NCBI GenBank assembly: GCA_038245905.1
Contig: JBBRRY010000017.1
Location: forward strand, 7,793-71,792
Direction of reading: 5' to 3'
Length of the DNA stretch: 64,000 nucleotides
Source of the DNA: Thermoanaerobaculia bacterium
GTDB lineage: Bacteria; Acidobacteriota; Thermoanaerobaculia; UBA5066
Each line of letters begins with the position of its first letter. Positions within the stretch are counted from its first letter, which is position 1. Below the pieces are notes generated by a model that saw only the letters and a program-made list of their open reading frames with translations, did not search any database and had not been told where the DNA came from. Shown piece by piece: positions 12,970-35,390 of this stretch. The position numbers and the translations under genes were made by a program.

Positions 12970-12976
12970 GAGGCGC

Positions 12977-15410: not shown

Positions 15411-15460
15411 GAAAGATAGAGAAGAGACTCGGATACGGATTTTCTTAAAAGGTTAAGAGG
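15411..15460 (-). repeat. AT-rich element, SD-like orientation (AGAGAAGAGA...GATTTTCTTAAAAGGTTAAGAGGGG), abutting the rplQ terminator
   Basis: variant core TTCTTAAAA. Confidence 0.6.
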
Positions 15461-15486
15461 GGCCCCGGTTCGCCGGGGCCTTTTTT
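15461..15486. terminator. bidirectional rho-independent terminator (GGCCCCGG-TTCG-CCGGGGCC + T6; A-run on the other side)
   Basis: perfect 8-bp GC stem, 4-nt loop, T tract; lies between convergent rplQ and response-regulator gene. Confidence 0.8.
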
Positions 15487-15500
15487 CATGAGGGGGGCTT

Positions 15501-20201: not shown

Positions 20202-21683
20202 GTGACTCTTCGCCTTTACAACACCATGAGCCGCTCGCTCGAGGAGTTTCGTCCCGTCTACCCGGGAAAGATCGGCCTCTACACATGCGGACCCACCGTC
20301 TACAACCGGGTGCACATCGGAAACCTCAGGACATTCGTCTGGGAAGACGTGATGTGCCGCGTCTTTCGCGCCCTCGGCTACGAGACGACCCAGGTGATGA
20401 ACCTCACGGACATCGACGACAAGACGATCCGGGGCGCGTTGGCCGCCGGGCTGCCGCTGCGCGCGTTCACGGACCTTCACATCGCGACGTTCTTCGAGGA
20501 CCTGAAGACGCTCGGCGTCGAGCCGGCGGCGCTCTATCCGCGCGCCACGGAGCACATCCCCGAGATGGTCACGATCGTCCAGAAGCTCGCCGCCCGTGGG
20601 CACACGTACGAGAGCGACGGATCGGTCTGGTTCCGGATCTCGACGTTCCCGGGCTACGGAAGTCTCTCTAAGATCGACCTCACGGCCGTGAAGCGCGGCG
20701 CGCGCGTGGCCGACGACGAGTACGAGAAGGAAGATGTGCGCGACTTCGCGGTATGGAAGGGAGCGAAGGAGGGCGAGCCCGAGTCCGCGACGTGGGCCAC
20801 GGCGCTTGGCCGCGGGCGGCCCGGCTGGCACCTCGAGTGCAGCGCCATGGCGATGAAGTACCTCGGCGAAACGCTCGACATCCACACGGGCGCCGTCGAC
20901 AACATCTTCCCGCATCACGAGAACGAGATCGCGCAGAGCGAAGGCGCGACCGGGAAACCGTTCGTCCATTACTGGCTCCACGCCGAGCACCTCCTCGTGG
21001 ACGGCGAGAAGATGTCGAAGAGCAAGGGGAACTTCTACACGCTTCCCGACCTCCTCGAGAGGGGCTTCTCTCCGCGCGCGATCCGCTACCTCCTCATCTC
21101 GGTCCCGTATCGGATGAAGCTCAACTTCACCTTCGACGGCCTGAAGGCCGCGACCTCCGCGGTCGAGCGGCTGGAGTCGCTCGACCTGCGGCTCAGGGAA
21201 AGAGAGAAAGAGAAGAACAGTTCTTTGAAAGGGGAAGAGGGGGGGAGAGAGGGATTCGAGGGGCGACTGGCGGAGGCGCGGCGTGCGGTCTTTGCCGCCC
21301 TCGAGGACGACCTCAACACGGCCGGCGCTCTCGGGGCGCTGTTCTCGTTCGTCAAGGCGACCAACGTCGATCTCGAGGCGGGCCATCTGTCGGCCTCCGA
21401 CGCAACCGCGGCGCGCGGTCTTCTCCATGAAGTCGCCGGGAACGTCTTCGGAGTCATTGAAAAGACCGCAGGCGACGATGCGCCCTCTTCACCTTCTCAG
21501 AAATCTTCATCCGAATCCCCCGAATCCGATGATGCGTGGATCCTGGAGCGCATCGAGGCCCGAAAGGGGGCTAGAAAGGCCCGGGATTTCAAGGCCGCCG
21601 ACGCGATCCGCGACGAGCTCCTGGGCAAGGGAGTCATCCTCGAAGACACGCCCCAGGGCGTTCGCTGGAAGAGGAAGCCTTGA
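20202..21683 (+). CDS. cysS: cysteinyl-tRNA synthetase
   Basis: HIGN and KMSKS class-I motifs; carries two AT-rich elements (21196-21256, 21483-21520) in the C-terminal domain. Confidence 0.9.
   Translation: MTLRLYNTMSRSLEEFRPVYPGKIGLYTCGPTVYNRVHIGNLRTFVWEDVMCRVFRALGYETTQVMNLTDIDDKTIRGALAAGLPLRAFTDLHIATFFEDLKTLGVEPAALYPRATEHIPEMVTIVQKLAARGHTYESDGSVWFRISTFPGYGSLSKIDLTAVKRGARVADDEYEKEDVRDFAVWKGAKEGEPESATWATALGRGRPGWHLECSAMAMKYLGETLDIHTGAVDNIFPHHENEIAQSEGATGKPFVHYWLHAEHLLVDGEKMSKSKGNFYTLPDLLERGFSPRAIRYLLISVPYRMKLNFTFDGLKAATSAVERLESLDLRLREREKEKNSSLKGEEGGREGFEGRLAEARRAVFAALEDDLNTAGALGALFSFVKATNVDLEAGHLSASDATAARGLLHEVAGNVFGVIEKTAGDDAPSSPSQKSSSESPESDDAWILERIEARKGARKARDFKAADAIRDELLGKGVILEDTPQGVRWKRKP
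21196..21256 (-). repeat. element, SD-like orientation (GAGAGAAAGAGAAGAACAGTTCTTTGAAAGGGGAAGAGGGGGGGAGAGAGGG), in cysS
   Basis: variant core TTCTTTGAA. Confidence 0.6.
21483..21520 (+). repeat. element, 16S-tail-like orientation (CCCTCTTCACCTTCTCAGAAATCTTCATCC), in cysS
   Basis: variant core TTCTCAGAA. Confidence 0.65.
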
Positions 21684-21685
21684 CA

Positions 21686-21697
21686 GTGGCGCGCCAC
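21686..21697. promoter_or_regulatory. perfect 12-bp palindrome GTGGCGCGCCAC immediately after cysS stop; half-site GCGCGCCACTGG recurs at 21731-21742 inside leader ORF
   Basis: seen in sequence; candidate operator or terminator element. Confidence 0.35.
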
Positions 21698-21718
21698 TTC
21701 GGGTCTACTTCCGGAGTC

Positions 21719-21760
21719 ATGATCTTCGTCGCGCGCCACTGGCACGTTCATCACACCTGA
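21719..21760 (+). CDS. candidate attenuation leader peptide MIFVARHWHVHHT (4 His + 1 Trp codons in 13)
   Basis: short ORF with GGAG SD, lying between cysS and the aro-his-trp supraoperon and followed by terminator hairpin. Confidence 0.55.
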   Translation: MIFVARHWHVHHT

Positions 21761-21832
21761 GTCGGCTGCGCCTCGCGCCGCCGGCCCATAGAGGTTCGGA
21801 GGCACGCGGGTTTTCCAACAAGGTCACCCCAA

Positions 21833-21861
21833 CCCCTCCGGATCGGAGGGGTTTTCGTTTT
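21833..21861 (+). terminator. attenuator or terminator hairpin CCCCTCCG-GAT-CGGAGGGG followed by TTTTCGTTTT, overlapping the TTG start of aroDE
   Basis: 8-bp GC stem + U tract; upstream segment 21796-21803 (TTCGGAGG) could pair with the 5' arm as anti-terminator. Confidence 0.6.
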
Positions 21862-23422
21862 GGTCCTCACCGCGGAGAAAACACTTCTCGTCGCGTCCCT
21901 CGCACCGGCTTCTAACGCCGAGGCTCTGGGGGGGCGCGCGGCTCTCGCCGACCTGCCTCCGTCGACGGCTGTCGAGCTGCGCCTGGATGCGATGACCGAG
22001 GCGCCTGCGTTCGGCGCGCTGCGCGCGTGCTTCGAAGGCAGAACGCTCATCGCAACCGTTCGATCCAAAGCCGAGGGCGGCGGGTTCCGGGGGAGCGAGG
22101 AGGAAGAGCGGGATTTCCTAGAAGGTGCCCTCTCTGCGGGCTTCGATCTCGCAGACGTTGAATTTCGCCGCGACCTTGGTACTCGCTTCGCCGGAATACC
22201 TCCTTCTAAGAAGATTTCTTCTCTCCACGACCCCGAAGGGGTACCAGCCGACCTCGACAGCGTCGTCTCGAGGATGCTCGCTTCCCCCTCGCGCTTCGTG
22301 AAAGTCGCGGCGACGGCAAACGATTCCGGCGACGCCCGCCGCCTTCTCGAGCTTCAGGCCGCGAACCCAGGGGGGCGCCTCACCGTATTCGGCATGGGCG
22401 AGGCCGGGATCGCCACGCGCGTCCTCTCGCCCTATCTCGGCGCGGCGCTCGCGTACGGGGCGCTCGTCCCCGGGCGCGCCACGGCACCCGGCCAGCTTCT
22501 TGCGCGCGACCTCAACGAGATCTACGGCGTCGGCTGCGCGCGGAGCGTCTCGCGGCTCTTCGGGATCCTGGGCGGCGTCGTCTCGCACTCCCTCTCTCCC
22601 GCTCTCCACAACGCGAATTTCGAGGCTCTCGAAGAGGACGCGCTCTACGTCCCGTTTGCGATGCGGATGCTCGGGAGGGAGCTCGAGCCCCTCGTCGCCT
22701 CCCTCGACGCGCTCGGCCTTCCTCTCGGGGGCGTCTCGGTGACGATCCCGTTCAAGGAAGAGGCCGCGCTCCTTTCGGGCGCGGCCGAGGGCGGCGAGAG
22801 GGCGGTCAACACGCTCCTGAGGTCGAGCGCCCCGGGCCTGCCGCTCCAGTGGCGCGCGGAAAACACCGACCGTGCGGCATTCGAGGCCGTGATTGAAGAT
22901 GCTTCCGAGAGAGGGAGAACCGAGACGAGCGCGAATGCGCGGGTGGCGATCGTCCTCGGGGCTGGTGGTACGGCACGGGTTGCCGTGGATGTTCTCCGAA
23001 AAAGGGGATTCGGAGTCTTTCTGGTGAACCGAGGCGAGGAGCGTGGCGAGGCGCTTGCGGCTGCCACGGGCGCCCATTACCTTTCTAATAAATCCTCGGC
23101 GCCGTGGCCCGAGGCTGGAGTCATCGTCAACGCGACGGCCCTCGGGCTTCTCCCGGGGGATCCTCTTCCCTGCGAGCAAAATATTCTCCGCCCCGGGATG
23201 CTCGTGATCGACGCGCCGTATCGCGCCGGCGGAACAGAGCTCGTCCGGGCGGCGCGCGCAGCGGGCGCGCGCGTCGTAGACGGCCAGACACTGCTCCTGC
23301 TTCAGGCCGCGGGCCAGGCAACGCTCTTCACCGGGCGGCAGACGAGCCCGCGGGATCTGCTCTCGCGTCTCGCGCCGCGCCTTCGCTCCCTGTTTTCGTC
23401 CTTCGAGGAGTTTTCTCCTTGA
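21860..23422 (+). CDS. aroDE: bifunctional 3-dehydroquinate dehydratase (type I) / shikimate 5-dehydrogenase
   Basis: N-terminal AroD-like and C-terminal AroE-like (NTD, GAGGTARV) halves; TTG start; elements at 22098, 22197, 23077. Confidence 0.8.
   Translation: MVLTAEKTLLVASLAPASNAEALGGRAALADLPPSTAVELRLDAMTEAPAFGALRACFEGRTLIATVRSKAEGGGFRGSEEEERDFLEGALSAGFDLADVEFRRDLGTRFAGIPPSKKISSLHDPEGVPADLDSVVSRMLASPSRFVKVAATANDSGDARRLLELQAANPGGRLTVFGMGEAGIATRVLSPYLGAALAYGALVPGRATAPGQLLARDLNEIYGVGCARSVSRLFGILGGVVSHSLSPALHNANFEALEEDALYVPFAMRMLGRELEPLVASLDALGLPLGGVSVTIPFKEEAALLSGAAEGGERAVNTLLRSSAPGLPLQWRAENTDRAAFEAVIEDASERGRTETSANARVAIVLGAGGTARVAVDVLRKRGFGVFLVNRGEERGEALAAATGAHYLSNKSSAPWPEAGVIVNATALGLLPGDPLPCEQNILRPGMLVIDAPYRAGGTELVRAARAAGARVVDGQTLLLLQAAGQATLFTGRQTSPRDLLSRLAPRLRSLFSSFEEFSP
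22098..22134 (-). repeat. element, SD-like orientation (GAGGAGGAAGAGCGGGATTTCCTAGAAGGTGCCCTCTC), in aroDE
   Basis: variant core TTCCTAGAA. Confidence 0.55.
22197..22227 (+). repeat. element, 16S-tail-like orientation (ACCTCCTTCTAAGAAGATTTCTTCTCTCC), in aroDE
   Basis: exact core; 14/15 match to CCTCCTTTCTAAGGA. Confidence 0.7.
23077..23098 (+). repeat. element (TTACCTTTCTAATAAATCCTC), in aroDE
   Basis: variant core TTCTAATAA. Confidence 0.5.
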
Positions 23423-25050
23423 AGATCGAGCGGCCCGACCCGAACCTGCCGCGAGGCGTGCAGGCATTTCTCTTCGACGCGGCCGAGCGCCGCCGGAAGG
23501 CGGAAGACTCGGTCGTGCGACGGCTTCAGGAGGCCGGTCTGCGTGAGGTGATTCTCCCCGTCCTGGATTTCGCGGCCCCCTATGCCGGCGTGACGGCCGA
23601 GGGAGACGATCGCCTTTATCGGTTCCTCGACCGGCAGGGGAATACTCTGGCGCTTCGGGCGGACTTCACGCCGATGGCGGCGCGCGTCGTGGCGCCACGG
23701 CTCAGCGCGCTCTCCGGAGCCGTCTCCCTCTTCTACCGCGGAGACGTCGTGCGCGACGAGGAGACTGGTGTCGGGCGCCGGCGCGAGTTCGCGCAGGTCG
23801 GCGCAGAGCGTTACGGCGATGGCCGCCCGGAGGCCGACGGCGAAATGCTCGCGCTGGCTCTCTCCTGCCTCGGAGATCTTCCGGCCGAGCGCCTCAGGCT
23901 CACCCTCGGCTGGTCGGGCCTCCTGGAACGCCTGCTCGCCATACTCGCCCCGGGACTCGAAGTGAACGGCGCGTCCGAACTCGCCGTTGCCTTGTCGGCC
24001 GCGCGCGCGCGGCACATCACGGAGCTGGAGACGCGGCTTTCGACCGCGGGCGCCGCGCCGGCCGTCGCTGCGGAAGCCGCCCGGGCCCTCCTCGTCGGCT
24101 TCGACCCCTCTTCCGATCTCTTCCACTCGACTGCCCTTGCGGGCGCGGCCGCGGAGCTCGCGCGCGCGGTCGCAATTGCGAGGGCCGCCCGGCCCGGTCT
24201 CTCGGTCGTCGTCGACCTTGCCGACACTCCCCAGGCCCCCTATTACACGGGGCTCACGTTCAGCGTGGACGCCGCGAGCGGGGGCGGCACGATTGCCGGA
24301 GGCGGACGGTACGACGGCCTCCTCGGGCGTTTCGGCACGGCGGCGCCCGCGCTCGGCTTCTGTATCGGCCTCGAGGCTCTCGGTGCTGCCGCCGATGTAA
24401 CCGAGAGAGACGCGCGCCCTCTCCGAATCGCGGTCGGGAAGGGCCGGCTCCTGCCGCAGGCGCTCGAGGCGCTCGACGCCGGAGGCGCCTCGTTCGGCGA
24501 GCCGGACGGCCGGCGCCTTCTCGTGCTTTCCTCGGACGGCGCGTTCGAGCTGCTTCTCCTCAAGGACGACGACGTCCCGACCTACGTGGCTCACGGTGGC
24601 GCCGACCTCGGGATCGTGGGGAGCGACCGCGTCCTCGAGAGCGGCGAGGACGTGACCTCCCCCGTGGAGCTTCCGTTCGGCGCCTGCCGCCTCTCCCTCA
24701 TCGGGCGGGCGGGGGAGCCGTTCCGCCCGAACGGCGCGCCCGTTCGCGTGGGAACGAAGTACCGCCGCCTCGCGGCCCGCTATTTCGATGAGCGGAAGAT
24801 CGCCCATGAGATCGTCCCGCTCGCGGGTTCGGTCGAGCTCGCTGCCGCGCTCGGGCTCACGGACGTCGTCGTGGACCTCATCGAATCTGGCTCCACGATG
24901 GCCGCGAACGGTCTCGCCGAGATCGAGACCATCCTCACGAGCCGCGCGACCCTCGTCCTCGGGCGTTCCGCGCTCATCGCCCGCCGGGCCGAGATCGCGG
25001 AGTTCGTCCAGCGCCTCAGGGCTCATGCGGGCAAGGCGCTGACTTCATGA
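23419..25050 (+). CDS. hisZG: fused ATP phosphoribosyltransferase regulatory subunit HisZ + short-form catalytic HisG
   Basis: N-terminal 330 aa HisZ-like (class-II aaRS-like), C-terminal ~210 aa HisG(S) (RIAVGKGRL...LVLSSDG...); single continuous ORF; TTG start overlapping aroDE stop. Confidence 0.75.
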   Translation: MKIERPDPNLPRGVQAFLFDAAERRRKAEDSVVRRLQEAGLREVILPVLDFAAPYAGVTAEGDDRLYRFLDRQGNTLALRADFTPMAARVVAPRLSALSGAVSLFYRGDVVRDEETGVGRRREFAQVGAERYGDGRPEADGEMLALALSCLGDLPAERLRLTLGWSGLLERLLAILAPGLEVNGASELAVALSAARARHITELETRLSTAGAAPAVAAEAARALLVGFDPSSDLFHSTALAGAAAELARAVAIARAARPGLSVVVDLADTPQAPYYTGLTFSVDAASGGGTIAGGGRYDGLLGRFGTAAPALGFCIGLEALGAAADVTERDARPLRIAVGKGRLLPQALEALDAGGASFGEPDGRRLLVLSSDGAFELLLLKDDDVPTYVAHGGADLGIVGSDRVLESGEDVTSPVELPFGACRLSLIGRAGEPFRPNGAPVRVGTKYRRLAARYFDERKIAHEIVPLAGSVELAAALGLTDVVVDLIESGSTMAANGLAEIETILTSRATLVLGRSALIARRAEIAEFVQRLRAHAGKALTS

Positions 25051-26357
25051 TGAAGATCGTCGACGCGGATACGCTTGCGGGCAAGAAGGAGCTGGAGCGG
25101 TTGCTAAAGAGCCGCCGGGGAGCCGCTCCTGACTTCGCGACGCTGAAGCAGGTCCTGCCGATCGTGGAGGATGTTCTGCGAAGAGGGGAGCCTGCGCTCC
25201 GGAAATACGTGAAGTGCTTCGACCCGTTGCGCGGCGCCCCTTCTTACCCTTCTAAGAAGCTCTTGATCACTCCCCGACGTGAGGAGTCTTCTCGGGTGGA
25301 TCCGGCGTTTCAGGCGGCGTTTGTCTTCGCCCGCAAGCGCATCGAGGCTTATCACCGCAAGCAGCTCTCGTCCGTCTCGCCGGGTTTCTCCTTCAAGGAC
25401 TCTCTCGGCGTCTCCTTCGTGGAGAGGCCCACGCCGTTCGATTCGGTGGGCGTCTATGTGCCCGGGGGCCGCGCCTTCTATCCGTCCTCGCTTCTCATGG
25501 GGGTCGTGCCCGCGCGCGTCGCGGGCGTCAGGCGAGTCGTCGTCGCGACGCCGCGCGGGGCGTGGGCGTCGAGCCCCGAGCTCCGGTGGGCGGCGGCCGA
25601 GCTGGGAGTCGACGAGGTGCTCCTCGCGGGAGGGGCCCACGGTATCGCCGGCCTCGTGTCCGTCGCGGGCGTCGCGAAGATCGTCGGCCCCGGGAACCGG
25701 TTCGTCGCGGCGGCGAAGCACCTCGTCTCGGGCCTCGTGGCGGTGGACATGCCGGCAGGGCCTTCGGAAGTCGCAATCCTCGCGTCGGCCGATGCGGACC
25801 CGGCGCTCGTGGCGGCGGATCTTCTCGCGCAAGCGGAGCACGATCCCGACGCAAAGTGCTTGCTGTTTACGAGCTCGAGAAGGCTGGCGGACGCCGTTCG
25901 ATGCGCGGCGCTCTCGCAGATGGATGCCTTCGAAGAGGATTCTTCTTTGATGGTGATGAGAGCGGCCTTGCGCCGCGGTGGGCGGATCTTTCTATTCAAA
26001 GAAATCTCCCGCGCCGCGTCGGCCTGCGCTGCCGTGTTCGCGGAGCACGTTCAGGTCATGGGCCGGTCTGTCGAGCGCTCGGCGGGTTCTCTCTTTCCCG
26101 CTGCCGGAACCTTGTTCATTGGCCCGTCGACGCCGACCGCGCTCGGGGACTACGTCCTCGGCCCGAATCACGTACTGCCCACAGGCGGTGCCGCGCGCAG
26201 CTTCTCGGGTCTCTCGGTGCGCGACTTCCTGCGCTGGGGGCGATCGGTCTCGGCCCCCGTGAAGGCGGCCCGCCGCCTCGCGCCCGCGGCAGCGGTCCTG
26301 GCGCGATTCGAAGGTCTCGTCGCCCACGCGAGCGCGCTCGACCGGAGAGTCCGGTGA
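25047..26357 (+). CDS. hisD: histidinol dehydrogenase
   Basis: 436 aa HisD; ATGA overlap; AT-rich elements at 25238, 25927, 25986. Confidence 0.88.
   Translation: MMKIVDADTLAGKKELERLLKSRRGAAPDFATLKQVLPIVEDVLRRGEPALRKYVKCFDPLRGAPSYPSKKLLITPRREESSRVDPAFQAAFVFARKRIEAYHRKQLSSVSPGFSFKDSLGVSFVERPTPFDSVGVYVPGGRAFYPSSLLMGVVPARVAGVRRVVVATPRGAWASSPELRWAAAELGVDEVLLAGGAHGIAGLVSVAGVAKIVGPGNRFVAAAKHLVSGLVAVDMPAGPSEVAILASADADPALVAADLLAQAEHDPDAKCLLFTSSRRLADAVRCAALSQMDAFEEDSSLMVMRAALRRGGRIFLFKEISRAASACAAVFAEHVQVMGRSVERSAGSLFPAAGTLFIGPSTPTALGDYVLGPNHVLPTGGAARSFSGLSVRDFLRWGRSVSAPVKAARRLAPAAAVLARFEGLVAHASALDRRVR
25238..25277 (+). repeat. element (CCCCTTCTTACCCTTCTAAGAAGCTCTTGATCACTCC), in hisD
   Basis: exact core. 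Confidence 0.7.
25927..25960. repeat. degenerate element (CCTTCGAAGAGGATTCTTCTTTGATGG), in hisD
   Basis: TTCGAAGAG variant; orientation ambiguous. Confidence 0.4.
25986..26010 (+). repeat. degenerate element (ATCTTTCTATTCAAAGAAATCTCCC), in hisD
   Basis: TTCAAAGAA variant. Confidence 0.45.
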
Positions 26358-27421
26358 CCGGCCGGCCCATCCCGGTCCGCGAGGAGATCCGGTCGCTCAG
26401 GGCCTATCGCCTCGAGTCCGAGGACGCCCCCCCTCTCCGAGCGAAGCTGGACTTCAACGAGTCGCCGTTCGACGTGCCCGAGGAAATCCGCGCGGAGGTC
26501 CTCGCGCGCCTCGCGGCGAAGAGATGGGGCCGCTACCCCGAGTTCGGCGCGCCGCGTCTGAAGAGGGCGGTCGCCGAGGCGATTGGCCGGCGGCCCGAAG
26601 AGATCGTGGTCGGCAACGGGTCTGGTGAGGTCCTTCTCGCGGCGGTCTCCGTCTTCGCGGGGGGCGGCTCTCTCGTCCTTCCGACGCCCACGTTCTCGCT
26701 CTACGGACAGATCGCGGCGATCGCGGCGGCCCGCGTCGTGGACGTGCCGCGCACGGGGCCGGATTTCGAGCTCGTCGAGGACGCATTTCTCGCCGCGGTG
26801 TCCCGGCCGCACGCCGTTCCTCTCGTCTGCTCGCCGAACAACCCGACGGGCGGCGTCGTACGGCGGGAATTCCTGGAGAGGCTGCTCACGGCCGCGCCCG
26901 TCGTGCTCCTCGATCAGGCCTACGTGGATTTCGCGGGGCCCGGCGACGACGGCCTCTCGCTCCTCGATGCCTATCCGAACCTCGTCGTCTTCCGGACGCT
27001 CTCGAAGGCGTACGCGGCCGCGGGCTTCCGGATCGGGTACGCAGTCGCGCCGCCGGAGCTCGCGCGGGAGATCGAGAAGGCCGTCCTGCCGTTCAGCGTC
27101 GACCTCGCGGCCGAGGAGTTGGCGGTCGCCGTCCTCGGGCGTCCAGAGGTTGCGCGGGCCCACCTGGGCAAGATCGTGGCCGAGAGGTTGCGCGTGGCCG
27201 CGGCGCTCACGGCGGCCGGCTGCCTCGTGGCTTCGTCGTCCGCAAATTTTCTCTTCGTGCGTCCGCCGGGCGGCCAGGCGGAGCCGGTCCGCCGGGCGCT
27301 TCTCGACAGGGGAATCCTCGTGCGCGAAATGACCGCGGCGGCGCCCGGGCGCCTCCGTGTTTCGATCGGATCCCGTGAGGAGAACGATCTTTTCCTCGAA
27401 GCGCTTCGGGAGGTGTTATGA
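26354..27421 (+). CDS. hisC: histidinol-phosphate aminotransferase
   Basis: class-II aminotransferase motifs (NPTG, SKAY..G.RIGY); GTGA overlap with hisD. Confidence 0.88.
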   Translation: MTGRPIPVREEIRSLRAYRLESEDAPPLRAKLDFNESPFDVPEEIRAEVLARLAAKRWGRYPEFGAPRLKRAVAEAIGRRPEEIVVGNGSGEVLLAAVSVFAGGGSLVLPTPTFSLYGQIAAIAAARVVDVPRTGPDFELVEDAFLAAVSRPHAVPLVCSPNNPTGGVVRREFLERLLTAAPVVLLDQAYVDFAGPGDDGLSLLDAYPNLVVFRTLSKAYAAAGFRIGYAVAPPELAREIEKAVLPFSVDLAAEELAVAVLGRPEVARAHLGKIVAERLRVAAALTAAGCLVASSSANFLFVRPPGGQAEPVRRALLDRGILVREMTAAAPGRLRVSIGSREENDLFLEALREVL

Positions 27422-28014
27422 GCAGGGTCGGAACAGTCGAGCGGAAGACGAAGGAGACGGACGTGTCCCTGTCGCTGACGCTCGACGGAGCGGGGCGAAC
27501 GGACGTGACTACGCCCGTCGGGTTTCTCTCCCACATGCTCGAGACGATCGCGAAGCACGCGCGCGTCGATCTCACGGTCCGGGCGTCGGGCGACGTGCAC
27601 ATCGACGCCCACCACACGGTCGAGGACGTCGGCCTCGCCTTCGGCGAGGCGCTGGCTCAGGCCCTCGGGTCGCGCGCGGGAATCGAGCGCTTCGGCGAGA
27701 GCCTCGTGCCGCTCGACGAGGCTCTCGCGCGTTCGGTCGTCGACCTCTCTGGCCGGCCGTACATCGTGTTCGAGTCTCCCATCGACAAAGAGCTCCTCCT
27801 TGTCACGAACGACTTCCCGTTCGCGCTCGTCGAAGAGTTCTGGAAGTCCGCGGCGTTTCGCGGCAAGTTCAACCTCCATGTGGACGTGATCCGCGCCCGG
27901 AACGGCCATCACGCGGCCGAGGCTGTCTTCAAGTCGGCCGCGCGCGCGCTGCGCCAGGCCATGACGATCACGGGCTCAGAGGTTCTCTCGACGAAAGGGA
28001 CGCTGACGGCATGA
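27418..28014 (+). CDS. hisB: imidazoleglycerol-phosphate dehydratase
   Basis: 198 aa IGPD (HHTVEDVG..). Confidence 0.92.
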   Translation: MSRVGTVERKTKETDVSLSLTLDGAGRTDVTTPVGFLSHMLETIAKHARVDLTVRASGDVHIDAHHTVEDVGLAFGEALAQALGSRAGIERFGESLVPLDEALARSVVDLSGRPYIVFESPIDKELLLVTNDFPFALVEEFWKSAAFRGKFNLHVDVIRARNGHHAAEAVFKSAARALRQAMTITGSEVLSTKGTLTA

Positions 28015-28640
28015 GCGAAGCCCCCGCGCCGGTGGTCACGCTCGTGGACTACGGGGTCGGTAACACGGCTTCCGTCATCCGCGCCTTCCGCCGGCTCGGC
28101 GCCGAGGTGGACTTCACGGCCGATCTCGACCGGGTCGCGGCCGCCCGCCGCCTCGTGCTGCCCGGCGTCGCCGCGTTCGCCCCGGCGATGAACCGGCTGC
28201 TCGAGACCGGCCTCGAATCGGCCGTGCGGGCAGCCGTGAAGCGGGGAGGGCGTCTGCTCGGGCTCTGCCTGGGTTTTCAGCTTCTCTTCGAAGAAAGCGA
28301 GGAGCACGGCGTTCACCGGGGGCTCGGCCTCGTGTCCGGCCGTATCCGGCCCTTCCCGGGCAGCGTGCGGTCGCCTCACGTGGGCTGGAACCGGCTCCTC
28401 ACTCGCCGGCCGGACGGTTTCGTCGCGGGGCTTCAGGACCGGAGCTTCGTCTACTTCGTCCATTCCTTCAGACCCGAGGGCGCCGAAGCCGCGGACGTCG
28501 CGGCGGCCTGCGACCACGGCGGAGAGTTCCCGGCGATCGTGCAGCGCGGGAACGTCTGGGGTTGTCAGTTCCACCCGGAAAAGTCGTCGGAGAACGGCCG
28601 GCTCCTGCTCTCGAATTTTCTCGAGGGGGATCCGGCGTGA
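28011..28640 (+). CDS. hisH: imidazole glycerol phosphate synthase glutaminase subunit
   Basis: class-I GATase (GLCLGFQLL...H..E); ATGA overlap. Confidence 0.9.
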   Translation: MSEAPAPVVTLVDYGVGNTASVIRAFRRLGAEVDFTADLDRVAAARRLVLPGVAAFAPAMNRLLETGLESAVRAAVKRGGRLLGLCLGFQLLFEESEEHGVHRGLGLVSGRIRPFPGSVRSPHVGWNRLLTRRPDGFVAGLQDRSFVYFVHSFRPEGAEAADVAAACDHGGEFPAIVQRGNVWGCQFHPEKSSENGRLLLSNFLEGDPA

Positions 28641-29422
28641 ACGGCGGCCGGCTTGCGCTGTGGCCCGCGATCGACCTCATGGGCGGCCGCGTGGTCCGGC
28701 TGCTCAGGGGCAAGCGCGAGGCCGTGACGTTCTACGACGAGCAGCCTTCCGAGGCCGCGAGGCGATTTGCGGCGGAAGGCGCCGACGGCATCCACGTGGT
28801 GGATCTCGATGCGGCATTCGGAACGGGGGACAACGAAAGCAATCGGAAAGAGATTGAAGAAATACTTTCTGTTTCGGAGGCTTCCGGGGTGGCAGTGCAA
28901 GTCGGGGGAGGGCTGCGCGCCACCGCGGCCGTCGAAGATTTCTTAGAAGGGGTGAGTACCGCTAGGGCAGTTGTCGGCAGCCTGCCGTTCCTCGACCGCC
29001 CCGCGTTCACACACCTTCTAAGAAAATCTTCCTCTTCCGTCTCGGCCCGCATCGTGGTGGCCCTCGATTGCAAGGATGGCCGTCCGACCGTCCGCGGCTG
29101 GACCGAGGACGCGGGAGCGGGTGACGCCGTGTCCGTGGCACGCGAGATGTGGGGCCTCGGCGTCCGGGCGCTCCTCGTCACGGACGTCGCGTGCGACGGG
29201 GCCATGACGGGCCCGAATCTCGAACTCCTCGCCGGAGTGCGCGCCGTCTTTCCGGGCGAGATCCTGGCGTCCGGCGGCATGCGAGGAGAACGGGATCTCG
29301 ATCCGGTCGACCGCACGCTCGCGGGTGGGCCCCGCGGCGCCATCTTCGGCCGCGCATTGCACGGCGGAGTCACCACCATGGCGAAGCTCAAGGCGGCGCG
29401 CGACCTCGGGAGGCCTTCATGA
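28637..29422 (+). CDS. hisA: phosphoribosylformimino-5-aminoimidazole carboxamide ribotide isomerase
   Basis: HisA fold (AIDLMGG...VQVGGGLR); contains complementary element pair at 28935-28960 / 29012-29039. Confidence 0.88.
28935..28960 (-). repeat. element, SD-like orientation (GATTTCTTAGAAGGGGTGAGTACC), in hisA
   Basis: exact core TTCTTAGAA; near-complement of 29012-29039. Confidence 0.7.
29012..29039 (+). repeat. element, 16S-tail-like orientation (CACACCTTCTAAGAAAATCTTCCTCTTCC), in hisA
   Basis: exact core. Confidence 0.7.
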
Positions 29423-30852
29423 CCCTCGCCGTCCGCGTCATCCCGTGTCTGGACGTCTCGGAAGGCCGCGTCGTAAAGGGCGTCTCGTTCGAAAATCTCC
29501 GCGACGCGGGAGATCCGGTCGAAGCGGCCACGCGCTACGAGGCCGAGGGGGCCGACGAGGTGGCTTTCCTCGACATCGCGGCCGCGCACGAGAAGCGAGG
29601 GACGTTCGTGGGGCTCGTGGGGCGCGTGGCCGAGGCGCTGTCTATTCCCTTCACCGTCGGCGGCGGCGTGCGTTCCGTGGAGGACGCGGACGCGCTCCTC
29701 AAGGCCGGGGCCGACCGGGTCACGGTGAACACAGCCGCGGTCGAGGACCCTTCCCTCATCACGCGCCTCTCCGAGCGGTTCGGAGCGCAGTGCGTCGTCG
29801 TCGCAATCGACGGAAAGAGGCTGCGCGATCCGAACGGCCTCGCGGTGATGCGCGTGACGACTCACGGGGGGAGGCGGCCCGTAGACCGCACGGTCACATC
29901 CTGGGCGGCCGCGGCGGCGGCAGCAGGAGCCGGCGAGATTCTGCTCACGTCCGTCGACGCGGACGGCACCCAGGCGGGGTTCGATCTCGAAATGCTCCGC
30001 GCCGTTCGCTCCGTCGTGGATGTGCCGGTCGTGGCCTCGGGAGGCGCGGGCCGGCTCGAAGACTTCGCGAAGGCGGTTCTCATCGGGGGCGCCGACGCCG
30101 TGCTCGCGGCGTCCGTCTTCCACGACCGCGTCTTCACGATTGGCGCGGTCAAGGAGGCGATGCGGCGTGCCGGCCTCGTCGTGCGCCCCGCTCCGGCCCG
30201 CGCACGTACGCTGCTTCCCCGCTACGACGAGAACGGGCTCGTGCCCGTGATCATGCGGGACGTCGCGACCGGCAGGGTCCTCACGCTCGCGTGGGCGAAC
30301 GCGGACGCGATCGCAAAGACCCGCGAGACCGGCCTCGCGCACTTCTACAGCCGGTCCCGGAAGTCCCTGTGGCGGAAGGGGGAGACGTCGGGGAACATCC
30401 AGCACGTCGCGGGAATTTCCCTCGACTGCGACGACGATGCCGTGCTGTACGACGTGCGCCCGTCGGGTCCCGCCTGCCACACGGGAGCGGAATCGTGCTT
30501 CACGCGCGTGGAGAGCTTCGACTCCTTCGACGTCCATGGCGCAGTCGCCGACGGGCTCGACCTCACCGAACTGTTCGCCGTCGTGAGGAGCCGGAAGGAA
30601 TCGCCGGTCGCCGGCTCGTATACGAGCAAGCTCTTTGACGACGGAATAGCGCGCATCGCACAGAAAGTGGGGGAGGAAGCCGTCGAGACGGCGCTCGCCT
30701 CGGTGACAGGCGACGGCAATGCGCTCGCGGGAGAGGCGGCCGATCTTCTTTATCACCTCGCGGTCCTGCTCACGGCGCGCGGCGTCGCACCGGGCGACGT
30801 CGCCGCGAAACTCGCTGAGCGCCGAGGCGCCGCGAGGCGCGAGAAGCCGTGA
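29419..30852 (+). CDS. hisFIE: triple fusion: IGP synthase cyclase HisF + PR-AMP cyclohydrolase HisI + PR-ATP pyrophosphatase HisE
   Basis: HisF ([17 protein letters not shown]), HisI ([15 protein letters not shown]), HisE ([17 protein letters not shown]) in one ORF. Confidence 0.82.
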
Positions 30853-32225
30853 GGAATCTCCACCGCCTCGTCGTGGTCGAGAGGCCGGCGGACCTTACGA
30901 CGCCCGTTGCGCTCATGAAGGGCCTTCTTGCCGGCGAGGGGCCGTGCTTCCTTCTCGAATCGGTCGAGGGGGGCGACCGCGTGGCGCGGTGGTCCTTCCT
31001 CGGGGCGTCGCCCTCGGGAGAGATCTCCGGCCAGGATACGGATCCGTTCGCCGCCCTCCGCGCGCTGCCTCGCGGCGAAATGGCGGCAGGCGGGGACGAC
31101 CTCCCTCCCTTCACGGGCGGAGCCGTCGGTTACGCGGGCTACGACGCCGTGAGGCGCCTCGAACGCCTCCCCGAAACGAACCCGGACCCGATCGGGCTGC
31201 CGGACGCGTGGTTCGGGATCTTCGACGCGGTCATCGCGTTCGACCATGTGCGGCACCGCCTTCTCTTCGTGACGCATGCCGAAGAGGGCCGGGAGGAAGA
31301 GGCGCGCGCTCGTCTGCACGCGCTCGAGGCGCGCACCCTCACCCGAGGTGGTGAAACGCGCACAGAGACTCTCTCTTCTCTTACCTTCAAAGAATCTTCT
31401 CCTCGTTCCTCCTACATCGCGGCGGTCGAGCGCGCGAAGGAGCACATTCGGGCGGGCGACGTGTTTCAGGTCGTCCTCTCGCGCCGCTGGTCCGCACCCT
31501 TCGACGGCGACGCCTTCGCTGTCTACCGCGCGCTCCGGTCCATCAGCCCGTCGCCGTACCAGTACTTCCTGAGGACGCCGCACGGCGCGATCTTCGGAGC
31601 CTCGCCCGAGCGACTCGTGCGCGTCGCGGCGGCCCTCGGCGGCGCGGCCGTGGAGACGATTCCTCTCGCCGGCACCCGCGCGCGCGGCGCGACGCGCGAA
31701 GAGGACCTCGCCCTCGAGAAGGAGCTCCTCGCGGACCCGAAGGAGCGCGCGGAGCACGTGATGCTCGTGGATCTCGGGAGAAACGACCTCGGCCGAGTCG
31801 CGAAGGCCGGGAGCGTGCGCGTGGAAGATTTTTTCCGCGTCGAGCGCTATTCCCACGTGATGCACATCGCCTCGCGCGTGACCGGCGTTCTCGCCGAGGG
31901 GAAGGACGCCGTCGACGCTCTCGTGGCGACGTTTCCGGCCGGGACGCTTACGGGAGCGCCGAAAATACGCGCGATGGAGATCATCGAGGACCTCGAGCCG
32001 GTGCGGCGCGGCGCCTACGGCGGCACCGTGGGCTACCTCGACTTCGCCGGAAACCTCGACGTGGCTATCGCGATCCGCACGGCGGTCGTCGCGAACGGCA
32101 TTCTCCACGTGCAGGCCGGCGCCGGCATCGTCGCCGACTCCGACCCCGAGGCCGAAGCGACCGAGTGCGAGAACAAGGCCCGTGCTCTCATGGGCGCCGT
32201 TGCGAAGGCGGGGACGTACCGATGA
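30849..32225 (+). CDS. trpE: anthranilate synthase component I
   Basis: 458 aa TrpE; GTGA overlap; AT-rich element at 31366-31414. Confidence 0.88.
31366..31414 (+). repeat. element (CTCTCTTCTCTTACCTTCAAAGAATCTTCTCCTCGTTCCTCC), in trpE
   Basis: variant core TTCAAAGAA. Confidence 0.6.
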
Positions 32226-32791
32226 TCCTCGTCGTCGACAACTACGACTCCTTCACGTACAACCTCGTCCAGATCCTCTCCATGTTCGACGGCGACGTAC
32301 GCGTCGTGCGAAACGACGCGCTCAGCGTGGACGCGATCCTCGCTGCGAAGCCGGACCGGCTCGTCGTGTCTCCGGGGCCGGGCCGGCCGGAAGACGCGGG
32401 AGTCTCGTGCGAGCTGATCCGCCGGAACGAGCGGATCCCTCTCTTAGGAGTCTGCCTCGGGCATCAGGCCCTCGGGGCCGTCTTCGGCGGAACGGTCTCC
32501 CGCGCGCCGGTCCTCATGCACGGCAAGACTTCGGAAATCTCGCACGAGGGAGCGGGCCTTTTCGCGGGGCTCCCGAGCCCGTTCACGGCCACGCGGTACC
32601 ACTCCCTCGTCGTGGAGCGGGACTCGGTTCCCGCGGCGCTCCGGATCACCGCCACGACCGATGACGGGCTCGTGATGGGCCTCGCCCATCGGACCCGCCC
32701 TCTCGTCGGCGTGCAGTTCCATCCCGAGTCGATCCTGACGAAAGAGGGGGAGCGGCTCCTGAAGAACTTCGTGGACGGGCGGCTCGCGTGA
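32222..32791 (+). CDS. trpG: anthranilate synthase component II (glutamine amidotransferase)
   Basis: 189 aa GATase ([24 protein letters not shown]). Confidence 0.9.
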   Translation: MILVVDNYDSFTYNLVQILSMFDGDVRVVRNDALSVDAILAAKPDRLVVSPGPGRPEDAGVSCELIRRNERIPLLGVCLGHQALGAVFGGTVSRAPVLMHGKTSEISHEGAGLFAGLPSPFTATRYHSLVVERDSVPAALRITATTDDGLVMGLAHRTRPLVGVQFHPESILTKEGERLLKNFVDGRLA

Positions 32792-33828
32792 CGACGGCCG
32801 CCCATCGCGCGCTCTGGACGGTGGCGCGTGGCGCGCATCTGACCCGCGCGGAAGCGCGGGCAGCCGTGACGGCGCTTCTCGACGAGGACATCCCCGGGAC
32901 GATCGTGGCCGGCCTCCTCGCGGCGCTGGCGGCCCGGGGCGAGACGATCGAGGTCGTGGCGGGCGCCGTGGATGTCCTCCGGGCGCGGGCGGCGCGGCCT
33001 CCCGTGGACGCGGCACTGGCCGCCCGCTCCATCGACGTCTGCGGAACCGGGGGCGACGGGTTCGGCACCTTCAATGTCTCGACGGCCGCCGCGTTCGTGG
33101 TCGCGGGCGCAGGGACGCCCGTCGCCAAACACGGGAACCGTGCCGTCTCCTCGGCATGCGGCTCGGCCGACGTCCTCGCAGCGCTTGGTGTCGAAATCGA
33201 GATGTCTCCCGTCCGGGCCGCCGAGGCGCTCGCGCGCGCGAACGTCACTTTCTTCTTCGCGCCGCTCTATCACCCCTCGATGAAGAAGGTAGGCCCGATC
33301 CGGCGCGAGCTGGGAGTCCGCACGGTATTCAACCTCGCCGGACCCCTTTCGAATCCGCTCGGCGTGACGCGGCAGATCGTGGGGGTGGATCATCCCGAGC
33401 GGGTGCCCGTGATCGCGGGAGCCCTCGCGGAGCTCAACACCGAGCGCGCGCTGGTGTTCTCGCACGAGACCGGCGGCGACGAGCTGCTGCCCTTCGGGCG
33501 CACGTTCGCGGCAGACGTGCGCGGGACCCATGTCGAGCTTCTCGAGCTCTCTGCCCCGGATTTCGGCCTCGAGGAGGGCGAGGGGGCCGATCCCTTGAAG
33601 GGCGGGGACGCCCACACGAACGCGGAGATCCTGCGCGCGATCCTGGGAGGCTTCCGGCGCGACGCGCGGGACGTCGTCCTGATGAACGCTGCAGCTGCGC
33701 TCGTCGTCTCGGGACTGGCCGCTGATTACCGGGAAGGCGTCACGCGGGCGGAACACGCCATCGACGAGGGGAGTGCCCGGGAGGCGCTCGATGCGCTCGT
33801 GAGAATCTCGAACGGGGTCCCGTCCTAA
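32788..33828 (+). CDS. trpD: anthranilate phosphoribosyltransferase
   Basis: GTGGDG motif, 346 aa. Confidence 0.9.
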   Translation: MTTAAHRALWTVARGAHLTRAEARAAVTALLDEDIPGTIVAGLLAALAARGETIEVVAGAVDVLRARAARPPVDAALAARSIDVCGTGGDGFGTFNVSTAAAFVVAGAGTPVAKHGNRAVSSACGSADVLAALGVEIEMSPVRAAEALARANVTFFFAPLYHPSMKKVGPIRRELGVRTVFNLAGPLSNPLGVTRQIVGVDHPERVPVIAGALAELNTERALVFSHETGGDELLPFGRTFAADVRGTHVELLELSAPDFGLEEGEGADPLKGGDAHTNAEILRAILGGFRRDARDVVLMNAAAALVVSGLAADYREGVTRAEHAIDEGSAREALDALVRISNGVPS

Positions 33829-33878
33829 GAGGAGTAAGAGGGAGAGAAATTTCTTAGAAAGGGTAAGAGGAAGAGGGG
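33826..33878 (-). repeat. element, SD-like orientation (GGAGTAAGAGGGAGAGAAATTTCTTAGAAAGGGTAAGAGGAAGAGGGG), intergenic trpD-trpC, doubling as trpC RBS
   Basis: exact core; most complete copy. Confidence 0.75.
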
Positions 33879-35390
33879 ATGGGCGGATCGATTCTTGGGG
33901 AGATTCTCGCCGCCAAGCGGCGCCGGATCGCCCGTGGGGAGTTCACGGCCGAGACGGGCGCGCGCGCACGCACCAGCGGGGGTAGGGGCGCGCAGCCCGC
34001 GGCGCGGCCCGACGGCGCGCGCTTCGCCGCGGCCCTTAGGTCTCACCCTTCTCTTTCTTCCTCCTCCATTTCTAAGCAAGTCTTTCCTCTTCCTCTCCTT
34101 CTTTCCGAGATCAAGCACCGCTCCCCGAGCGCGGGCCTGATTCTTCCCGACGCGTCCTCGCGAATCGAGTCCCTCGCGCGCGCCTATCGGCGCGGCGGGG
34201 CGTCGGTCCTCTCCGTCGTCGTCGAGCAGGACTTCTTCGGCGGCGATCCGTCATGGCTGCCCCGCGCGAAGGCTGCGTCCGGGCTGCCCGTCCTGATGAA
34301 GGACTTCATCGTGGACGAGGCACAGCTGGACTTCGCCGCGGCCCTCGGCGCCGACGCGGTGCTCCTCCTCGTGTCTGCCCTCGAGGACGAGGGGCTTTCG
34401 CGCCTCCATGCGGCCGCGCGCTCCCGCGGTCTCGCGGTCCTCGTGGAGGCGCACGACGAGGCCGAGACCCGGCGGGCGCTGGATGTGGGCGCGGAGGTTG
34501 TCGGCGTGAACGCGCGGGATCTCGAGACGTTCGCCGTCGACCTGCCTGGAATGGCCCGCCTCGGTTCGCTCCTGCCGACGTCAGTCGTCCGCGTGGCCGA
34601 GAGCGGCATCAGGACCCGAGCGGACATCGAGGCTCTCTCCATGGCGGGCTATGGGGCTTTTCTCGTCGGTGAGACGCTCCTCCGCGCGTCCGACCCGGCG
34701 CGCGCCCTGCGCGAGCTCAAGGGCGAGAACGCGACCGAGATCAAGATCTGCGGCGTCACCCGGGAAGAAGACGTCGACGCGTGCCTGGAGTTCGGCGTGG
34801 ACTGGATCGGGCTCATCTTCGCGGAGCGCTCGCCGCGGAAATTGACGCCAGAGAGAGGAAGAATTCTTCGAATGAGGGCAATGGGGGAGCGCGGTGCGCG
34901 ACGAGAGGAAGGCGGGGCTGCGGGCGCCGTCAAGGGTGTGGTGGTTGTCTTCGACGGGGGCGACGAGGAAGAGATTCTTCGAGTCATTGAACTCGTTCGT
35001 CCGGACGTCGTTCAAATGCCAGATCCCCCTCTTACCCTTCAAAAGAAATTCTCTTCTTTCTCTTTTCTTTCGCTGTGGAACACCCTTCGTGTCGGGAGAG
35101 ATGACTTGTCGAGTGCGAATGAGCGGCGCGGCGCCGCTCTCCACTTCGATACGTCGGTGGCCGGGGCGAGCGGTGGCACCGGCAAGACATTCGACTGGAC
35201 TCTTCTGGACGCCGTCGATCGATCGCGCCCGCTGATTCTCGCGGGCGGCCTGAATCCCGGAAACGTGGCGGACGCCGTCAGAAGAGTGAAGCCGGACGTC
35301 GTGGACGTGGCGTCGGGAGTGGAGTCCGCGCCCGGAATCAAGGATCGGGCGAAAATCGCCGCATTCGTGAGGGAGGTCCGTGGTGCCTGA
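33879..35390 (+). CDS. trpCF: bifunctional indole-3-glycerol-phosphate synthase / phosphoribosylanthranilate isomerase
   Basis: IGPS half ([10 protein letters not shown]..) and PRAI half (KICGVT...GGTG..FDW); four AT-rich elements inside. Confidence 0.85.
34035..34110 (+). repeat. extended polypyrimidine element (CCTTCTCTTTCTTCCTCCTCCATTTCTAAGCAAGTCTTTCCTCTTCCTCTCCTTCTTTCC), in trpC
   Basis: variant core TTCTAAGCA, long CT tract. Confidence 0.6.
34849..34888 (-). repeat. element (AGAGAGGAAGAATTCTTCGAATGAGGGCAATGGGGGAG), in trpF half
   Basis: GAATTCTTCGAA variant (cf. 12991-13012). Confidence 0.5.
34964..34998 (-). repeat. element (GAGGAAGAGATTCTTCGAGTCATTGAACTCG), in trpF half
   Basis: variant. 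Confidence 0.45.
35024..35073 (+). repeat. element (CCCCTCTTACCCTTCAAAAGAAATTCTCTTCTTTCTCTTTTCTTTCG), in trpF half
   Basis: variant core TTCAAAAGAA. Confidence 0.6.

Follow-up and report, generated by a model that had tools for sequence, protein, structure and literature searches.

The window considered here is a 64,000-nucleotide stretch of contig JBBRRY010000017.1 from a Thermoanaerobaculia bacterium (GenBank assembly GCA_038245905.1), in which a ribosomal cluster, cysS, a long operon of aro, his and trp genes, mpg and rimO are host to a family of AT-rich sequence elements, referred to below as arms, that lie both within the genes and between them. The genes are those that a first reading of the sequence (hereafter the original prediction) had named: cysS, hisD, hisA, trpE, mpg, rimO and rpmC, along with the fusions aroD-aroE, hisZ-hisG, hisF-hisIE (hisF-hisI-hisE) and trpC-trpF, are all confirmed by Pfam. 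The operon that carries these fusions runs from 21860 to 35390, with adjacent genes overlapping by a few bases, and its fused-gene layout is conserved in all relatives examined, which are represented by six loci with cysS-aroDE-his-trp in synteny (L001-L004, L122 and L123) and which, with the window, make seven syntenic operons.

The motif and its copies in the window

At the centre of each arm is a core which in its exact form is the 9-mer TTCTAAGAA. This word or its complement occurs seven times in the window, at 4204, 12987, 22204, 25250, 28940, 29016 and 33851, against 0.09 ± 0.29 expected from dinucleotide shuffles of a sequence that is 67.5% GC, and variants of the core with one mismatch give 28 strand-hits where 2.5 are expected. 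The original prediction, which had put the exact copies at seven with a chance expectation below 0.1 and had noted additional one-mismatch variants, is therefore sound on both counts, and the flanking tracts that it described as shared are also real. Indeed, the copies have in common CCCTCTTACC upstream of the core and ATCTTC(T/C)n downstream of it, and alignment of the window copies on the core yields an oriented consensus, CCCCTCTT(C)ACC-TTCTAAGAA-ATCTTC, with a tail rich in C and T after it. In its general form the arm is an asymmetric motif of ~38 nt, CCCTCTTCACC-TTCnAAGAA-ATCTTCTCTTC, in which an invariant core (TTCnAAGAA) joins the GC-richer inner end (CCCTCTTCACC) to an outer pyrimidine tail (ATCTTCTCTTC) and which is nearly free of G on one strand. 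We use Y form for the pyrimidine-rich arm and R form for the purine-rich arm, both as read on the + strand. The logo amounts to ~37 bits across ~38 nt, with TTC-n-AAGAA as its core and with G depleted on the Y strand from -10 to +27. The core is not a true palindrome, in that only TTCT/AGAA (4+4) is dyadic, position 3 being T in 70% of copies and its mirror position 5 being A in 95%. The likeness of the arm to the 16S 3' end, to boxA and to the Shine-Dalgarno sequence is regarded as a putative coincidence of composition.

On scoring with a position matrix derived from related genomes, the window proves to contain 22 arms (Table 1). Fifteen of them lie between 21.2 and 35.1 kb, in cysS, aroDE, hisD, hisA, trpE, the trpD/trpC junction and trpCF, where the original prediction had counted 17; four are in the ribosomal cluster, where it had counted three (those at 4060 and 4204 in the C-terminal extension of rpmC, those at 12987 and 15442 intergenic); and the remaining three, one in mpg and two in rimO, are in genes that it had named. 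With two weak arms counted, 15 of the 22 are inside Pfam-confirmed genes. The concentration in the aro-his-trp region is genuine within the window, at ~1 arm per kb in the his-trp operon as against ~0.1 elsewhere, but the family is not confined to it, being genome-wide, clade-wide and present in many unrelated genes. The coding copies are in frame and free of stops, as had been claimed, although this is required of any sequence inside an intact gene; more telling is that they use AT-ending codons, the unusual choice that had also been pointed out, in a genome with a GC content at third codon positions (GC3) of ~0.85.

Pairing, setting and conservation of the arms

In a scan of a collection of 185,579 species-representative genomes for CCTTCTAAGAA(N0-1)ATCTTC, at least 117 loci were listed. 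Among the 117 listed loci, 94 are high-GC, being spread over many contigs from at least 26 Thermoanaerobaculia/Acidobacteriota assemblies, and the other 23 are low-GC chance hits; among viral contigs there are no high-GC matches, only low-GC chance hits. In other words, the motif family is genome-wide in at least 26 metagenome-assembled genomes (MAGs) of Thermoanaerobaculia/Acidobacteriota and is not specific to the his-trp operon, with hundreds of copies in the Thermoanaerobaculia, which are bacteria of soils and sediments. The HisD homologues, which are all from MAGs, likewise place the window in Acidobacteriota, class Thermoanaerobaculia. This distribution bears on the suggestion that the copies are an assembly artefact, a contamination or a deliberate synthetic watermark, to which nothing but the oddness of AT-rich patches in 68% GC sequence lends any colour. 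Since the motif recurs in the same codons, at orthologous positions, in MAGs assembled independently in many ENA, NCBI and JGI projects (at least 26 species-representative assemblies), and since the sequences have diverged as orthologues do, such an origin is vanishingly improbable.

What becomes evident from the wider set is that the arms come in pairs. The pair statistics are drawn from 709 kb around the listed high-GC loci, which were picked for an exact match to the motif and some of which are orthologous between genomes; gene calls in them, outside the Pfam-checked genes, follow a GC3 heuristic. Neighbouring arms no more than 320 nt apart are ordered R-then-Y in 54 cases, in the opposite order in 2 and in the same orientation in 9. 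Moreover, among 117 seemingly isolated arms, a weak partner is present on the proper side of 82 and on the wrong side of 5, and because most seemingly single arms have such a degenerate proper-side partner, some 85-90% of all arms are paired. In a paired unit the GC-richer ends face inward and the CT/GA tails outward, the distance between the two copies being as a rule 65-150 bases. The core-to-core spacing peaks sharply at 75-78 bp, a value which recurs at independent loci of single genomes, and has a broad second mode at 113-140 bp; the full range is 32-308, with spacings below 63 bp in only 3 of 121 units. Heterotypic combinations of arm types (ATC versus AATC tails) are in slight, non-significant excess. 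The original prediction did not contain this obligate head-to-head pairing, nor the genome-wide spread of the motif, nor its conservation at the same codons in relatives.

The units are placed between tandem genes in 22 cases, divergent genes in 6 and convergent genes in 3, roughly in proportion to the frequency of such gene pairs, and 15-19 of 53 units lie within single open reading frames (ORFs). Intergenic sequence is enriched in arms, with ~59% of them in the ~23% of sequence outside called genes, and many intergenic units span the gap between co-directional genes. Given that units occur in tandem, divergent, convergent and intragenic settings, they are not gene-end elements. In this regard, an intrinsic terminator was considered and rejected, since the arms enclose 45-250 nt, the units occur inside genes and between divergent genes, and the terminator consensus is not enriched; scans for promoter and terminator consensus sequences alike gave no enrichment, and arms and sites do not coincide. 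The sole arm to abut a canonical hairpin and T6 terminator is that after rplQ, the Y-arm partner of which is decayed in the window and intact in relatives L002 and L004. The order of elements after rplQ (window 15395-15540; L002:140-300; L004:285-450) is R arm, GC hairpin with T6 terminator and, in the relatives, Y arm.

Intragenic units are found mainly in the inter-domain linkers and insertion-tolerant loops of universal core genes, their hosts including CysS, LeuS, PheT, TsaC, QueC, MnmA, RimO and RNase R. Units are also found near transporters, peptidases, kinases and FG-GAP proteins, such that no clear regulon emerges; a regulon of amino-acid and translation genes in particular was rejected because dense loci also hold genes of these other kinds. 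Nor do the arms appear to be processing stems of tRNAs or other stable RNAs, no tRNAs being flanked by arms. The overall density of arms is ~0.1-0.3 per kb and varies greatly, rising ninefold in the his-trp operon.

Between the syntenic loci the nucleotide motif is kept at the same codons, and the cysS, hisD and hisA units persist in genomes whose HisD proteins are 63-83% identical. Wherever both hisA arms are detected, they are separated by 76 nt, and in three genomes a distance of 273 nt separates those of cysS. PSYPSKK, the peptide specified by the 25250 arm, is retained in the majority of 24 aligned HisD sequences, down to 64% identity. Among distant genomes, in which HisD is 63-68% identical, the operon has 3-6 arms, as against 13-20 in the window and the relatives closer to it, while the oldest units, those of cysS, the hisD N-terminus and hisA, are common to nearly all syntenic operons. 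The comparison thus shows that the number of units has grown in the sub-lineage containing the window.

Table 1. Arms detected in the window by the position matrix (positions are those of the window; Y and R forms as defined in the text).
Arm	Form	Position	Strand	Score	Core or sequence	Remarks
rpmC, weak	R	4042..4079	-	14.7		rpmC (L29) C-terminal extension; partner 4204, 144 nt away
rpmC	Y	4193..4230	+	41.8	exact core	Encodes PSKKSSS in the rpmC extension
Ribosomal cluster, intergenic	Y	12976..13013	+	32.1	exact core	GC hairpin before it; no partner detected
Downstream of rplQ		15424..15461	-		core TTTTAAGAA	Just past rplQ; adjoins terminator hairpin and T6 run at 15467-15486
cysS unit, left	R	21203..21240	-			Encodes ..NSSLKGEEG..; linker before DALR domain; orthologous arm in L001-L004 and L122
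cysS unit, right	Y	21483..21520	+			Linker after DALR domain; 273 nt from left arm
aroDE unit 1, left, weak	R	22097..22134	-	10.6		Encodes EERDFLEG; equal-length substitution relative to L003, L122 and L123
aroDE unit 1, right	Y	22193..22230	+		exact core	Encodes PPSKKISS; 89 nt from partner
aroDE second arm	Y	23072..23109	+		core TTCTAATAA	Partner detectable in L002 and L004, none detected in the window
hisD N-terminal	Y	25239..25276	+		exact core	Encodes PSYPSKK; partner arm missing in the window
hisD unit 2, left	R	25925..25962	-	22.4	core ATCAAAGAA on - strand	Orthologous in L001, L002 and L004
hisD unit 2, right	Y	25984..26021	+		TTCAAAGAA	Encodes IFLFKEIS; 52 nt from partner
hisA unit, left	R	28922..28959	-		exact core	Encodes VEDFLEG; native helix replaced at equal length
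hisA unit, right	Y	29005..29042	+		exact core	Inter-arm interior encodes native beta-strand region
trpE	Y	31375..31412	+		TTCAAAGAA	Between N-terminal and chorismate-binding domains; without a strong partner; has orthologues in L001, L002 and L004
trpD/trpC unit, left	R	33833..33870	-	38.5	exact core	Intergenic, directly upstream of trpCF start codon
trpD/trpC unit, right	Y	34059..34096	+		TTCTAAGCA	Variable N-terminus of TrpC; 219 nt from partner
trpF-domain unit, left	R	34846..34883	-		TTCGAAGAA	
trpF-domain unit, right	Y	35027..35064	+		TTCAAAAGAA with one extra A	174 nt from partner
mpg (methylpurine DNA glycosylase)		49260..49297	-	39.5		No strong partner
rimO unit, left	R	59417..59454	-		TTCTATGAA	Linker between radical-SAM and TRAM domains
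rimO unit, right	Y	59535..59572	+	18.4	CTCGAAGAA	111 nt from partner

Several further features of the loci are of note. The rpmC (L29) ORF at 3806-4291 (+) encodes 161 aa, and only aa 12-60 match the Pfam L29 domain; a Lys/Ser/Ala-rich C-terminal extension makes up the remainder. Between cysS and aroDE there is a strong terminator-like hairpin with a T-rich tail, at 21831-21853 (+), from which it follows that cysS is probably transcribed apart from the aro-his-trp operon. A further AT-rich patch in hisA, at 28829-28884 (+), carries ~6 residues more than solved HisA/PriA homologues and is not scored as an arm. At 56313-56392 (-) ARAGORN calls an 80-nt tRNA-Glu(CTC), probably a false positive, since Rfam has no tRNA there even at E<=1. 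Elsewhere in the family, at four or more different loci, there is a sub-type of arm in which the outer tail ATCTTCTCTTC is replaced by AAnTTYGCAGACCGT (L015:1291, L078:2680, L020:6440, L021:477, L103:5786, L042:7076/7191 and L050:169); this tail is on both sides of the unit in L042 and lies ~25 nt upstream of a start codon in L021 and L103.

Origin of the arms and their possible function

Codon alignments of 13 genes give an amino-acid identity of 0.60 inside the arms and 0.76 elsewhere, and at unchanged amino acids a third-position identity of 0.73 inside the arms and 0.63 elsewhere. The excess at third positions together with the lower amino-acid identity points to a constraint on nucleotides, at positions where the protein is tolerant, and the conservation at the DNA level that the original prediction had proposed is thereby upheld. 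The reading frame is also biased, with 46 of 71 sense-strand Y arms in one frame. In comparison with solved structures, the arm-encoded stretches of HisA and HisD align to native helices and loops, with 1-4 extra residues. In AroDE, sequences without arms (GGDPEARSILSKAL...GLPPEKVILS) and with arms (GSEEEERDFLEGAL...GIPPSKKISS) are of equal length, EARSILSKAL being replaced by EERDFLEGAL and PPEKVILS by PPSKKISS. The equal length of AroDE and the alignments of HisA and HisD therefore indicate that the arms formed where they stand, through point substitutions and now and then a small indel; in other words, the claim of substitution and not insertion stands. Once formed, the arms have been retained over very long periods through selection or drive on their nucleotides.

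There is one clear insertion event, a 30-residue indel, 'PRARGSKRTISLKGEEGRRR..', that lies just upstream of the conserved hisD Y arm in many relatives. This segment, which is polymorphic among closely related HisD proteins (HisD alignment columns 60-100; L001:10180-10300), consists of an R arm and spacer next to that Y arm. For the N-terminal arm of hisD, the partner is, depending on the lineage, in a native helix, in the inserted 30-aa segment or absent, a shift in position which suggests that there is pressure for pairs to be maintained. Two alternatives, 'EENGSSKVMRAALRRGGRIF' and 'DSVSLKGNAATARASLLRRGRIF', are seen among relatives at the second hisD unit (HisD alignment columns 330-350); they may differ by a frame-shifting pair of indels around the R arm.

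The HisD insertion polymorphism, in which an R arm and interior come and go between relatives, is one of the observations that might suggest a decayed or very small mobile element, akin to miniature inverted-repeat transposable elements (MITEs), rickettsial palindromic elements (RPEs), REPINs (hairpin-forming doublets whose units are repetitive extragenic palindromic, REP, elements) or small dispersed repeats (SDRs), with terminal inverted repeats mobilised in trans and in-frame insertions that are tolerated. The outward-facing inverted termini, the constant order, the MITE-typical unit sizes and the intergenic enrichment would all be in keeping with it. Against this, the arms of HisA, HisD and AroDE replace native residues at equal length, their positions are stable at 63-83% HisD identity, and partner arms are no more alike than random arms. 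Moreover, the interiors of different units are unrelated, also at equal length within one genome, an all-versus-all BLAST giving only 2 trivial matches; these unrelated interiors, the equal-length substitution and the variable spacing led us to reject a classical MITE. In ~0.9 Mb of fetched flanks no transposase was found. Two distant arm pairs lie in an RNase R-like gene and an FG-GAP repeat gene, and a tblastn search of the fetched loci with an approximate IS200 TnpA query returned only noise, on which grounds an autonomous element was also rejected for these loci. A mobile origin is thus very improbable, and the RPE-like in-frame repeat of the original prediction, which would entail a common interior, a net insertion and extra similarity of partner arms, falls with it.

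Inverted repeats around a short segment also call to mind invertons, in which a site-specific recombinase would act at the arms and invert what lies between them, so that genes become phase-variable or are recoded. Global invertases are known to act on families of inverted repeats which, with a common consensus, flank short segments at many loci, and the constant head-to-head order and the minimum spacing of the arms would suit such a system. The interiors do not. When flipped, intragenic interiors are stop-free in 26 of 55 cases, as against 59% of random segments of the same genes, which removes the recoding variant; they encode catalytic-fold segments of essential enzymes (the beta-strand of HisA, for example), which inversion would inactivate; and among the 7 syntenic operons there is no flipped allele, all having the same orientation. 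We regard invertons as very improbable.

The complementarity of R and Y arms raises the question of whether it is in RNA that they act. A 5' purine arm would then pair with a 3' pyrimidine arm, in a 20-35 bp duplex closing a large loop, to be recognised by RNase III or a further factor for double-stranded RNA, or to serve as a block to exonucleases, thereby setting the processing or stability of long operon mRNAs. In favour of this, minimum-energy folding predicts an arm-arm stem, 27 bp on average, for 46 of 53 units, and the R-then-Y order yields a 5'-R/3'-Y RNA from either strand. The densest units, moreover, are in a 14-kb polycistronic operon, many intergenic units lie between co-directional genes, and the REP elements of E. 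coli play roles of this kind (PMC12306157). The pairing itself, however, leaves no trace in the variation of the arms. Partner arms share 20.26 positions, as against 20.51 ± 0.31 for shuffled partners, which is to say that there is no covariation; the duplex energy is -39.0 kcal/mol for partner arms and -36.2 ± 7.7 for non-partner arms; and in sense transcripts there are 53 G·U and 51 A·C combinations, with no excess of the wobble pair. What these comparisons show is that the arms are recognised independently of each other. The quality of the arms has no asymmetry relative to transcription (17 of 34 intragenic and 7 of 18 intergenic units), the interiors are no more structured than controls (z -0.19 versus -0.25), and Rfam has nothing relevant in the whole window at gathering thresholds or in 21-35.3 kb at E<=1. 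Units are also found between divergent genes, short loops are avoided though hairpins favour them, and a purely structural role would not hold the same 38-nt sequence at hundreds of loci. The RNA-level signal of the original prediction is thus unsupported by the tests of covariation, wobble and strand direction, and an RNA element is a possible but doubtful explanation.

The explanation that we prefer, with a probability of about 0.4, is that the copies are the arms of a lineage-wide family of putative paired recognition sites on duplex DNA. The two arms of a pair, their inner ends opposed, enclose ordinary sequence of any kind, whether it codes for protein or not, and a putative clade-specific symmetric protein, a dimer or tetramer, would read both arms on duplex DNA and bring them together, the 45-120 bp between them being bent into a small loop. 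The arms themselves arose where the host protein tolerates change, ordinary sequence having been turned into the motif by point substitution and by indels of 1-4 codons, and they evolve as DNA uptake sequences do (PMC2817400; bioRxiv 10.1101/2025.10.24.684340). The putative complex would most likely bind in an architectural or insulating capacity, or else allow self-recognition in the uptake or recombination of DNA. In this regard, the avoidance of spacings below 63 bp and the preference for ~76 bp fit the stiffness of a duplex-DNA loop, whereas short loops would be expected of a hairpin. A motif that binds a protein or resembles an uptake signal, which was among the candidates of the original prediction, is still the best class of explanation.

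Several considerations weigh against this reading of paired duplex sites. That the arms act as DNA is a view which rests on the null results for RNA pairing and on the distribution of spacings, and the spacings have no clear 10.5-bp helical periodicity. Depletion of G from one strand over 38 nt would be more typical of recognition of a single strand, be it RNA or single-stranded DNA. The predicted stem in most units is itself awkward, in that arms which are complementary will tend to make any transcript across a unit fold, with some consequence. The ninefold density of arms in the his-trp operon is left without explanation, and the statistics come from loci with an exact match to the motif, some of them orthologous.

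A rival explanation is a signal for DNA uptake or recombination, similar to the DNA uptake sequence (DUS) or uptake signal sequence (USS), in which each arm would enhance uptake by being recognised by the competence machinery and would spread by molecular drive, through preferred uptake and recombination of better matches, and in which the pairing would reflect a two-fold symmetric receptor and entry of the DNA as a U-turn. The low amino-acid identity in the arms, the frame bias and the in-place substitution are as such a signal would have them, and the number of arms grows with time in the lineage. The hosts, moreover, are mostly universal core genes (such as CysS, LeuS, PheT, TsaC, QueC, MnmA, RimO and RNase R), viral contigs of high GC show no copy of the motif, and there are features in common with known uptake sequences (PMC2817400; bioRxiv 10.1101/2025.10.24.684340). 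Those known sequences are, however, mostly single or in tight terminator hairpins, where here ~85-90% of arms are paired over 63-300 bp in one order, and their density is ~1 per kb and fairly even, where here it is ~0.1-0.3 per kb and very uneven. An uptake signal of this type is an unlikely though serious candidate.

If the sites are paired sites on duplex DNA, as we prefer, then a clade-specific reader that needs two inverted 38-bp sites ~76 bp apart, possibly a transposase or recombinase that has been domesticated, or an uptake receptor with two-fold symmetry, could amount to a new recognition system, a proposition that we advance tentatively and with the odds against it. Were it true, the family would be a paired, synapsis-dependent counterpart of DNA uptake sequences, in which the demand for sites rewrites loops and helices of essential enzymes. 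It would also show that the genes of core metabolism can take on a DNA-level signal in their coding sequence and retain it across genomes that are 63-83% identical in HisD.

Comparison with known systems

Known uptake sequences are clade-specific words present in hundreds to thousands of copies, which in coding regions occupy poorly conserved residues in preferred frames and between genes are often inverted repeats (PMC2817400; bioRxiv 10.1101/2025.10.24.684340). The resemblance of the arms to the DUS of Neisseriaceae and the USS of Pasteurellaceae is extensive: a clade-specific word with a strong 9-10-bp core and weaker flanks, found on both strands in hundreds of copies or more; coding copies made by substitution at poorly conserved residues in preferred frames, with orthologous positions kept and numbers that grow; and intergenic copies that are often inverted pairs. 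They differ in that nearly every copy here has a partner, in a fixed head-to-head order at 63-300 bp and inside genes as well, in the lower and very uneven density, and in a word that is AT-rich, ~38 nt long and depleted of G on one strand.

REP sequences, their mosaic assemblies (bacterial interspersed mosaic elements, BIMEs) and REPINs, which depend on REP-associated tyrosine transposases (RAYTs), are like the arms in being short, highly repeated, lineage-specific, long-lived and mostly intergenic, and in forming inverted doublets with a long hairpin (PMC3116915; PMC12306157). Unlike the arms, REPs are individually palindromic and extragenic, and their doublets have a fixed spacing and a related spacer; here the arms are asymmetric, the spacing is variable, the interiors are unrelated, and a quarter to a third of units are intragenic and arose by substitution. 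No RAYT was seen in the fetched loci with the approximate IS200 TnpA query.

In-frame MITEs and RPEs share with the arms a presence as in-frame repeats in essential genes, at surface or linker positions conserved between species. RPEs are insertions of a whole conserved element of 100-150 bp that add 30-50 residues, however, whereas the units here lack a conserved interior, and their arms take the place of native residues with no change of length. The small dispersed repeats of cyanobacteria, which Elhai and colleagues are said to have described in 2008, are reportedly 21-27 nt long, set in otherwise homologous sequence and often found as complementary pairs that flank or extend hairpins; they are, again reportedly, insertions that extend stems, in contrast to the arms, which are substitutions and in which partners are not matched to each other. 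The family does not fit readily into an existing category: it fails at least one tested defining feature of each of DUS/USS, REP/REPIN and MITE/RPE, and a search of the literature, which covered the motif itself, repeats of Thermoanaerobaculia, intragenic repeats and REPs of Acidobacteriota, yielded no account of it.

The consequences are partly practical. The presence of the motif across Thermoanaerobaculia, set against gene profiles, offers a handle on the putative reader factor, and the motif could serve as a marker for binning and for tracing recombination in the clade. There is also a caution here for annotators and for alignment-based tests of selection, in that the patches of sequence made by the arms are not driven by the protein. 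The constraint on nucleotides overrides both codon usage and the choice of amino acid in essential genes, among them CysS, HisA, HisD, TrpE, aminoacyl-tRNA synthetases and tRNA-modification enzymes.

Another parallel is HIP1 (GCGATCGC) of cyanobacteria, also an over-represented word that is woven into coding sequence by substitution and conserved beyond expectation. HIP1 is an 8-bp perfect palindrome in single copies, whereas the word described here is asymmetric, 38 bp long and obligately paired. With DNA uptake sequences and HIP1 as the earlier cases, the arms are a third example of a long nucleotide word imposed on coding sequence, and to our knowledge the first in which such a word comes in obligate oriented pairs, and the first from a high-GC uncultured lineage of soil and sediment.

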